Below are positions 12,001 through 15,000 of a DNA stretch of 52,420 nt, piece after piece. The stretch lies in the IMG/VR virus record IMGVR_UViG_2698536477_000003; one strand, given 5' to 3'. The position numbers are program-made. Positions within the stretch are counted from its first letter, which is position 1; each line of letters begins with the position of its first letter. Source of the DNA: a virus. Taxonomy: Duplodnaviria; Heunggongvirae; Uroviricota; Caudoviricetes.

Positions 12001-15000
12001 CGACCGGAATACTCTCCGGAGTTTGAGCAGGCATGGCTGGCATATCCCAAACGTGCTGGTGGCAATTCAAAATCTGCAGCCTTCAAAGCCTGGAAAGCCC
12101 GTTTGAATGAGGGGGTAAACCCCGAAACCATGCTGGAAGGTGTGAAACGCTACGCGGGCTGGGTATCTGCGATGGGTAACAGCGGCACACAATTTGTGAA
12201 ACAGGCTGTCACGTTCTTTGGTCCGGATCGTCATTTCGAAGAATCCTGGGAAGTTCCTGCGGTATCTGTAGCCGGACGTGAGGACCCGTACTTCAAAGCC
12301 AGTTACGACAACGTGGACTACAGCCAGATCCCGGCAGGATTCAGGGGGTGATCATGAGTCTTTTGAATGACGTTCAGAAATTCATTGAAGCCCATCCGGG
12401 GTGTACTTCCGGAGACATTGCGGAGCAGCGCGTTCTGCAGTCAGCAAGCAAGTTACGTCAGAGCGGGCGTGTGGCTCACCGTTGTGAAGGAGATACACGC
12501 AGACATTTCCCGCGCCTGACTGAGAGAGCGCAGGAACCGGAACCACAACCAGTTCGAGAAACCAGACCTGTGCGCAATTTCTATGTCGGCACTAACGATC
12601 CACGGGTGATTTTGTGCCTGACCCGCCAGGCGGAAGAACTGGAGTCCAGGGGCTTATACCGTCGTGCTGCAACGGTGTGGATGGCGGCATTCCGTGAAAG
12701 CCACTCCCAGCAAGAGCGAAACAATTTTCTGGCGCGTCGTGAGCGGTGCTTACGGAAAAGCAGCAAGCGCGCTGCATCGGGTGAAGAGTGGTATCTGTCA
12801 GGGAATTACGTGGGGGCTTAATGAGTAATAAATATTGCCAGGCGCTGGTGGAACTGCGGAACAAACCAGCCCATGAACTGAAGGAAGTGGGCGATCAGTG
12901 GCGCACGCCGGACAACATTTTCTGGGGAATTAACACCCTGTTTGGCCCGTTTGTTCTGGATCTGTTCACTGACGGTGATAACGCCAAATGTGCCGCGTAT
13001 TACACGGCGGAAGACAACGCGCTGGCGCATGACTGGTCAGAACGTCTTGCGGAGCTTAAAGGTGCTGCCTTTGGTAATCCCCCATACAGCCGCGCCAGTC
13101 AGCATGAGGGGCAATACATCACCGGCATGCGTTACATCATGAAGCATGCCAGTGCCATGCGTGATAAAGGCGGGCGCTATGTTTTCCTGATTAAAGCTGC
13201 CACCAGCGAAGTGTGGTGGCCGGAAGATGCAGATCATATTGCTTTTATTCGCGGGCGTATTGGTTTTGAACTGCCTGTCTGGTTTATCCCGAAAGACGAG
13301 AAGAAGGTACCGACAGGCGCTTTCTTCGCTGGTGCTATTGCTGTTTTCGACAAGACCTGGAAGGGACCGGCAATCAGCTACATCGGGCGCGATGAACTTG
13401 AGGCATGTGGTGAGGCCTTTCTGGCGCAGGTTCGCCAGCAGGCGGAAAAACTGGTCAGGGAGATGGCGGCATGACGACGTTAACTCAATGTCAGCAGCAG
13501 GTGCTGGATATGCTGATTTCTTACCAGAAAGAGCGTGGCTTTCCGCCAACCAATCAGGAGGTGGCAACCATGCTGGGATATCGTTCAGTGAATGCAGCGG
13601 TGGAGCATCTTCGCGCACTGGAGAAAAAAGGCGTCATCACGATAAAGCGTGGTGTGGCCCGGGGGATAACGCTTCATACCGCGGTGAAGGACGACGACAG
13701 CGAGGCGGTCGGGATTATCCGCTCACTGCTTGCCGGTGAGGAAAACGCCAGGCTGCGTGCAGCCCACTGGTTACATGAGAGGGGTCTGAAAGTATGAAGC
13801 TGATTCTGCCTTTCCCGCCCAGCGTGAACACGTACTGGCGACACCCCAACAAAGGGGCGTTTGCAGGTAAGAGCCTGATAAGCGCGGCGGGGCGCAAATT
13901 CCAGAGCGCGGCGTGTGCAGCAATAGTTGAGCAGTTACGTCGTCTGCCAAAACCAACGTCGGCACCTGCTTCAGTGGAGATCGTGTTGTTTCCTCCGGAT
14001 AACCGGATCCGCGATCTGGACAACTATAACAAGGCGCTGTTTGACGCCCTGACCCACGCGGGTGTGTGGGAAGACGACAGTCAGGTGAAAAGAATGCTGG
14101 TGGAGTGGGGACCGGTTATCCCGGAAGGGAAGGTCGAGATCACTATCAGTAAGTACGAGAAAACGGCGGGTGCAGCCGCCTGATTAAGAGGAGAAACGAA
14201 GTATGAATAATCTGATGGTCATTGATGGTATTGAAGTTCGTCGTGATGCTTATGGTCGTTACAGCCTGAACGATCTGCACAGGGCTGCCGGTTCTCTGGA
14301 TAAGCATAAGCCTGCATTCTGGCTCCGCAATGAGCAAACTGAGCGTTTAATAAGCGAGTTGCAGATTTGCAACTCGGTCAATATAGAGCCAGTTAACGTT
14401 ATTCGTGGCGGAAATAACCAGGGGACGTATGTCTGCAAAGAACTGGTGTATGCCTATGCAATGTGGATCAGCCCGTCATTCCATCTGAAGGTGATCCGTA
14501 CTTTCGACATGGTAACCAGCGCACCGGAAAAATTATCCGGACAGGCTGCTGACAAGATGCAGGCTGGTGTGATTCTGCTGGACTTTATGCGCCGGGAGTT
14601 AAATCTGTCTAACTCTTCAGTGCTTGGAGCCTGTCAGAAACTTCAGGAGGCTGTTGGCTTACCGAATCTGGCACCGCGCTATGCCATTGATGCTCCTGCT
14701 GATGCGCCTGATGGCTCAAGCCGCCCCACGCTGTCGCTGAGTGCACTGCTGAAACAGTATGGTATCCGCTTGACGGCTAATCAGGCATATCACCAGATGG
14801 TGAAGCTGGGGATCGTTGAACAACGCGAACGATACAGCCGTACCGCGATTAACAACATCAAAAAATTCTGGTCGCTGACGGCGAAAGGCTGCATGTTCGG
14901 CAAGAACATCACCAGTCCTGCAAATCCACGCGAGACGCAGCCGCATTTCTTCGAATCCCGATTCCCTGAGCTGTTAAAGCTGCTCGATACCGTTCATTGA

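Follow-up and report, generated by a model that had tools for sequence, protein, structure and literature searches.

In E. coli LexA, helix 3 of the DNA-binding domain contacts DNA through S39, N41, A42, E44, and E45 (PMC3091678). N-terminal fragments left after cleavage of repressors such as LexA and CI are reported to keep repressor activity unless they are removed by ClpX or ClpXP (PMC10584840), and gp6 of the Bacillus tectivirus GIL01, a truncated LexA homologue, binds its own palindrome, GaCACAnnTGTGaC, and activates the late promoter P3 (PMC6182141). Here, we analysed a related gene in a 52,420-nucleotide stretch of Caudoviricetes prophage DNA (IMG/VR record IMGVR_UViG_2698536477_000003; the whole stretch is referred to as the window). 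The gene, at 13471..13797 on the + strand and given the working label LexN, encodes a 108-amino acid protein with a LexA DNA-binding domain. From its description, gp6 appears to be the closest characterised analogue: both proteins are phage-encoded and combine a LexA DNA-binding domain with the absence of a peptidase domain. Unlike gp6, which belongs to a tectivirus of Gram-positive bacteria, LexN occurs in lambdoid enterobacterial phages, has an additional conserved tail of 38 amino acids, and adjoins a RusA gene. LexN adds an uncharacterised member to the few truncated LexA homologues known to be encoded by phages.

The open reading frame (ORF) starts with ATG, and residues 1–65 of its product matched the Pfam LexA DNA-binding domain (LexA_DNA_bind, PF01726) over its full length (E = 2.9e-19, model positions 1–65 of 65). 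Residues 2–69 aligned without gaps to residues 2–69 of E. coli LexA in the DNA-binding domain structure 1lea (E = 7e-16). An AlphaFold2 model (mean predicted local distance difference test score, pLDDT, of 78) contained helices at residues 6–22, 28–35, and 40–52 and wing strands at 56–59 and 65–68, and the top Foldseek matches of this model were the DNA-bound LexA chains of 3jso; chain 3jso_B superimposed with a root-mean-square deviation (rmsd) of 1.3 Å over 68 residues at 50% identity. The LexA-type winged helix-turn-helix thus delimited by the model, Foldseek, and the ungapped alignment comprises residues 1–69 (13471..13677, +). It is a gamma/beta-proteobacterial-type LexA N-terminal winged-helix domain that was copied long ago. 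The recognition helix reads SVNAAVEHL, so that four of the five helix-3 contacts of LexA are kept (S39, N41, A42, and E45), together with the wing residues R64 and G65, whereas the fifth contact, E44, is replaced by valine.

The peptidase half of LexA is missing. A Pfam search of the 108-amino acid protein gave no match to Peptidase_S24, and the full-length LexA model TIGR00498 scored 70.8 bits against a cut-off of 110.95, covering model positions 1–91 of 203 only. LexN is thus outside the LexA repressor family as TIGR00498 defines it: it has the N-terminal domain and lacks the S24 Ser/Lys dyad (Ser119/Lys156 in LexA) and the conserved Ala-Gly cleavage site. The initial annotation, made from the sequence, had placed a LexA-like 108-residue ORF at exactly these positions and quoted its sequence correctly, and the likeness to the LexA winged helix that it proposed is borne out by alignment and structure prediction alike. 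Its further statement that the protein ends where the S24 domain would begin holds for the absence of that domain; in place of a simple stop, two amphipathic helices follow at residues 75–102 (13693..13776, +).

In the model, these helices (75–87 and 93–102) are joined to the winged helix by a low-confidence linker (71–75) and are themselves predicted with a block-mean pLDDT of approximately 87 across residues 81–100. Their hydrophobic pattern is kept in relatives with 39–66% identity. As modelled, LexN is therefore a LexA DNA-binding domain with a new C-terminal helical hairpin rather than a bare truncation, and the tail probably serves as a dimerisation module that replaces the C-terminal dimer interface of LexA. 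The order of a winged helix-turn-helix followed by helices recalls repressors of the BlaI/MecI type (1sd7, 2g9w), which gave weak Foldseek matches; with an rmsd of 8–10 Å and no sequence relationship, however, this is an analogy of layout only. A search of a defence-system library with LexN returned weak winged-helix similarity at most.

To judge from its sequence, LexN cannot undergo the RecA*-stimulated self-cleavage that inactivates host LexA and phage CI, because it has neither an S24 domain nor a conserved Ala-Gly cleavage site; the protein had been proposed to be non-cleavable, and the domain searches agree. We infer a dimeric DNA-binding regulator that DNA damage would be unable to switch off. 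In having the DNA-binding domain alone, LexN resembles the post-cleavage fragments of LexA and CI. Those fragments are transient products of proteolysis, whereas LexN is made as such and ends in ...RGLKV rather than VAA. The VAA end targets LexA 1–84 to ClpXP.

One feature of the tail could be read as a remnant of the cleavage region. HMMER aligned the 'LLAGE' stretch of LexN with 'VAAGE' of LexA, and the TIGR00498 match runs on to model position 91, so 'LLAGEE' (A88–G89) might mimic the Ala84–Gly85 loop, with LexN being cleaved in trans or inhibiting S24 peptidases or RecA*. We regard such a decoy as very improbable: A88–G89 is present in this copy, yet G89 is replaced by Asn in four of 15 close relatives, the motif is absent from relatives with 39–52% identity, and in the model 'AGE' forms the turn between the two helices, without an extended loop. 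A role of 'AGE' as cleavage or decoy site was rejected for this lack of conservation and for its position in a helical turn.

LexN is widespread and has been annotated before, which the initial annotation had missed. It was found in 2233 of 5426 complete E. coli genomes (~41%), in one to four copies each, almost all with at least 95% nucleotide identity. RefSeq names near-identical proteins 'LexA family transcriptional regulator/protein', and labels in the 50 phage records that contain it, among them Stx2a and Stx2c (Shiga toxin 2) phages, SfII, SfIV, mEp460, and 1720a-02, include 'LexA DNA binding domain protein' and 'repressor, lexA family'. LexN belongs to phrog_362 ('transcriptional repressor'; E = 1.4e-59, residues 1–108 against profile positions 1–106 of 106). 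A comparative catalogue of Stx phages lists 'pham 237, pfam01726' in 15 phages, without functional work (PMC8136144), and this pham is very likely the same gene family. In the searchable literature, we found annotations and this catalogue entry only, and no experimental study of LexN function. The resemblance to a partial LexA might suggest a decaying, functionless gene fragment, a view that is scarcely credible because LexN is conserved: it is intact and full length in 2222 E. coli genomes, a dedicated PHROG of equal length exists, and the tail and the DNA-contact residues are kept down to 39–45% identity with an unchanged operon position.

As to function, we tentatively favour, short of confidence, the reading that LexN acts on CTGT-like sites related to the SOS box as a stand-in for LexA. 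The protein of the E. coli/Shigella clade would read an SOS-box-related, CTGT-like palindrome, with a preference that has probably moved or become less strict at the base that Glu44 reads in LexA. It would take the place of LexA during lytic growth, after host LexA has been cleaved, and would re-silence a subset of LexA-controlled promoters of host and phage, the latter at a dinI-like gene, a Panacea module, a methylase gene, and a site within cI. This reading is suggested by the LexA domain and fold with S39, N41, A42, E45, and R64–G65 in place, by the missing S24 domain, by the conserved tail helices and operon position, and by the repressor activity reported for isolated N-terminal fragments (PMC10584840). 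Two further lines of evidence are the LexA-type boxes in the window and the operons of distant relatives.

Exact CTGT-N8-ACAG palindromes occur five times in the window against 0.72 expected, a number that none of 100 shuffles reached, and N8 was the only enriched spacing of the CTGT/ACAG palindrome. A position weight matrix (PWM), built from 27 SOS boxes of E. coli and giving scores that are indicative only, found seven sites of at least 17 bits versus 0.027 expected. At least three boxes had been claimed before; those three (1399–1414, 49775–49790, and 49803–49818) are real, and four others had been overlooked. At the attL end, three PWM sites (1397–1416, 1420–1439, and 1501–1520) lie 5′ of a Panacea/SocA gene (1523–2011; SocA_Panacea, PF13274) and a 182-amino acid ORF (2034–2582; phrog_13343), and the arrangement suggests a toxin-antitoxin or defence-like module under SOS control. 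At the other end, two boxes (49773–49792 and 49801–49820, found by the PWM and as exact matches) lie 5′ of a dinI-like gene (49511–49759, −; DinI, PF06183, E = 4.5e-20).

The remaining two boxes are internal. A candidate operator, the near-consensus LexA box TACTGTTTTTACATACAGTA (8180..8199; PWM score 25 bits), lies in the linker codons of cI. Its half-sites, in Thr-Val and Asn-Ser codons, are kept (box at 836–855 of locus L165) in a 70%-identical cI, the linker of which has otherwise diverged; this looks like selection on the DNA site, and the box could act as a roadblock or as part of an internal SOS-inducible promoter. The other box, TACTGTAAAAATATCCAGTT (16967..16986; 23.9 bits), stands at the start of an N6/N4 DNA methylase ORF (16959–18017), between the antiterminator gene Q on its 5′ side and the tRNAs and stx on its 3′ side. 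A box at or slightly ahead of the methylase start is a recurrent feature: it is found approximately 5 kb 3′ of LexN in ~22 of 80 viral loci and also in locus L172 (7739–7758), and genome loci of Kluyvera, Kosakonia, and Enterobacter (among L180–L186) supply four more cases and a fifth locus with a variant.

Host LexA can explain all seven boxes and is the default explanation; none of them needs LexN. The boxes of the dinI-like operator and the 1399 box before the Panacea/SocA module are ordinary host LexA targets. The idea of a LexA mimic, put forward in the initial annotation, is thus supported as far as the DNA-binding domain, the absence of S24, and the existence of the boxes are concerned, but the boxes do not depend on LexN.

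The second line of evidence comes from nine relatives of LexN (39–66% identity), all of which share its nin-like position. Four of these nine loci have a near-consensus LexA box in an intergenic region, behind a likely promoter and just 5′ of a short LexN-containing operon. In L175, a TTGAAC-N15-TATACT promoter with its −10 element overlapping the box is followed by DinI (552–785), a 75-amino acid ORF (797–1021), and LexN. In L176, two boxes precede a 95-amino acid ORF (3310–3594) that consists of the RecA C-terminal domain alone (PF21096, E = 9e-10), a 77-amino acid ORF (3722–3952), and LexN. L171 and L172 each have a terminator-like hairpin, then one box, a small conserved ORF (phrog_1813; 4713–4958 and 4724–4948, respectively), and LexN. 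The phrog_1813 ORF (75–82 amino acids, 53–58% identity between copies) is found directly 5′ of LexN in this one clade (L171, L172, L175, and L176), and a 66–67-amino acid ORF (phrog_1212) lies 3′ of LexN in three of these four loci; the small ORFs beside LexN in distant phages matched only PHROGs of unknown function. Because LexA boxes head operons that combine LexN with DinI or a RecA C-terminal fragment, some phages seem to place LexN under direct SOS control, beside other genes derived from SOS proteins, and this adds to the case for a LexA stand-in. Apart from these relatives, eight proteins of 140–350 amino acids (P0132, P0133, P0148, P0152, P0153, P0155, P0156, and P0160) have two LexA DNA-binding-domain matches per chain and are possibly covalent 'dimers'.

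A number of observations weigh against LexN acting as a LexA stand-in. Glu44, one of the five LexA contacts, is Val in LexN, and none of ~18 family members has an acidic residue at position 44, which is occupied by V, A, T, F, S, L, or Y. Helix 3 varies by clade (SVNAAVEHL, SVNTIAGHL, SGNAAFEHL, SQNTVFIHL, SSNAVLLHL, SPYAAYEHL, and others), with N41Y in one member and E45 replaced by G, A, I, or L in others, whereas most full-length LexA matches read S[PA]NAAE[ED]HL. LexN is 42–67% identical where the adjacent RusA is 76–91% identical (LexN 42%, RusA 76%, and DUF968 67% in L188; 67%, 91%, and 88%, respectively, in L179), and divergence at this pace suits a specificity in flux more than a role at a host operator that does not vary. 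The most diverged helices are found in three of the four proteins whose operons have canonical upstream boxes, so those boxes are probably host LexA sites and less likely autoregulatory ones. Half of the viral loci with near-identical LexN (22 of 43, inspected over 7 kb on both sides) are without a strong box, and among 54 loci with the box-bearing cI allele, seven are without LexN. Lastly, a different dimer module might set a different half-site spacing. The boxless loci and the LexN-free cI-box loci rule out a strict co-occurrence of LexN with phage LexA boxes.

The same observations speak for a regulator that has kept the LexA fold and been re-targeted to an operator of its own, in half-site and/or spacing, and that activates or represses phage promoters and does not act directly on SOS boxes. 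The GIL01 protein, a truncated phage LexA homologue with its own palindrome and a late-promoter activator, sets a precedent (PMC6182141), and the non-acidic residue 44, the clade-wise diversification of helix 3, the fast evolution of LexN relative to its neighbours, the boxless loci, and a new dimerisation tail that could alter the spacing all suit it. We consider this a serious possibility, although on balance a doubtful one. Four of the five contact residues are LexA-like in the E. coli/Shigella clade, and late genes of lambdoid phages are already served by Q. No convincing LexN-specific operator was found among all 4-mer palindromes with N4–N12 spacers in the whole window, and no conserved inverted repeat was seen in the 8.4–17.1 kb region. 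The strongest palindrome enrichments were short AT-rich or GC-rich repeats, the LexA box itself (ACTG-N10-CAGT and CTGT-N8-ACAG), and CCGG-N8-CCGG, which occurs 11 times in the window versus ~1.0 expected.

A more far-reaching form of the LexA stand-in would make LexN an 'SOS reset/hijack' factor: the induced phage would produce a LexA surrogate that is proof against RecA. LexN would then re-repress host SOS genes and LexA-controlled rivals, such as antirepressors of other prophages and colicins, and would also act on the conserved boxes of its own phage (cI linker, methylase gene, and dinI and Panacea modules). Together with the phage DinI and RecA C-terminal fragment genes, it would belong to a set of SOS-modulating early genes in ~40% of E. 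coli genomes, including those with Stx phages. With all of these targets and partners taken together, the proposal is rather unlikely.

Unlike host lexA, LexN is phage-encoded and part of an early lytic operon. The LexN ATG overlaps the stop codon (ATGA) of a Dam-family N6-adenine methyltransferase gene (12788..13474, +; PF05869, E = 1.1e-45), and the LexN stop overlaps the ATG of a RusA Holliday-junction resolvase gene (13794..14183, +; PF05866). Because both gene ends overlap neighbours and no separate promoter for LexN was found in the window, the gene layout assigns LexN to the early rightward operon, in the region equivalent to nin. On the 3′ side of RusA follow genes for a KilA-N protein, a DUF968/HNH-like protein, and the antiterminator Q (order Dam-LexN-RusA-KilA-DUF968-Q); the 5′ side of LexN contains cro/cII-like genes and genes for two Rha-family proteins, an O-like replication protein, and a PerC-like protein. 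The two Rha-family genes adjoin each other (9307–10476 and 10473–11315) and represent an internal duplication in the early operon; each contains the same terminator-like hairpin, AACCGCGCTCATGCGGTT, with a T run after it (9721–9738 and 10581–10598). LexN is not the immunity repressor, since the prophage encodes a separate, cleavable CI protein in which HTH_3 and Peptidase_S24 domains are combined (7716..8408, −; domain search). LexN also differs from lambdoid CI proteins in lacking the combination of HTH_3 and S24 and in its position, which is not divergent from cro but 5 kb downstream in the rightward operon.

The conserved neighbourhood raises the question of a functional link to recombination. 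On replicating phage DNA, LexN could recruit or modulate RusA and/or the DUF968 HNH-like protein as an accessory DNA-binding partner, with no role as a transcription factor. Besides the overlap of the two genes, RusA lies at most one gene 3′ of LexN in eight of nine distant contexts and follows it in 11 of 13 genome loci, in one (L194) after a gap of ~260 bp, and DUF968 follows LexN wherever the context is long enough to show it. In E. coli genomes, LexN lies between a phage Dam or PerC gene and RusA in nearly all cases. The order of nin genes is inherited in modules, however, which makes synteny weak evidence by itself, and the loci L175, L182, and L184 have LexN without RusA. Conversely, RusA genes also occur without LexN, one example being that of the K-12 prophage DLP12, and the RusA homodimer acts without a partner. 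With the conserved residues of LexN being the sequence-reading ones of a transcription factor, such a partnership is improbable; the synteny may reflect module inheritance of the nin region or a functional link, of which we rank the latter low.

The host prophage is an Stx2-type lambdoid prophage. Its LexN gene is 99.7% identical to the copy in Stx2a_1447, and at its left end the window matches E. coli JNEC-KY172, in which stxA2 is part of the homologous prophage. The prophage is inserted in the 5′ end of dusA (51007–52044, +), with an integrase gene (49821–50918, −) in divergent orientation and a 5′ fragment of dusA near the left end. In JNEC-KY172, the host lexA-dinF locus lies ~4 kb from the left end of the prophage (L002, 13536–14144).

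If LexN has been re-targeted, it would join GIL01 gp6 as the second example of a LexA DNA-binding domain that a phage has taken over for private regulation, here in lambdoid phages of Gram-negative bacteria. If, as we tentatively favour, LexN binds SOS-type operators, ~41% of complete E. coli genomes, including several with Stx2 prophages, would carry a damage-insensitive LexA surrogate that would be switched on during prophage induction. Such a surrogate could shape the duration of the SOS response, the competition with co-resident prophages and colicins, the release of Shiga toxin, and SOS-driven mutagenesis under antibiotics.

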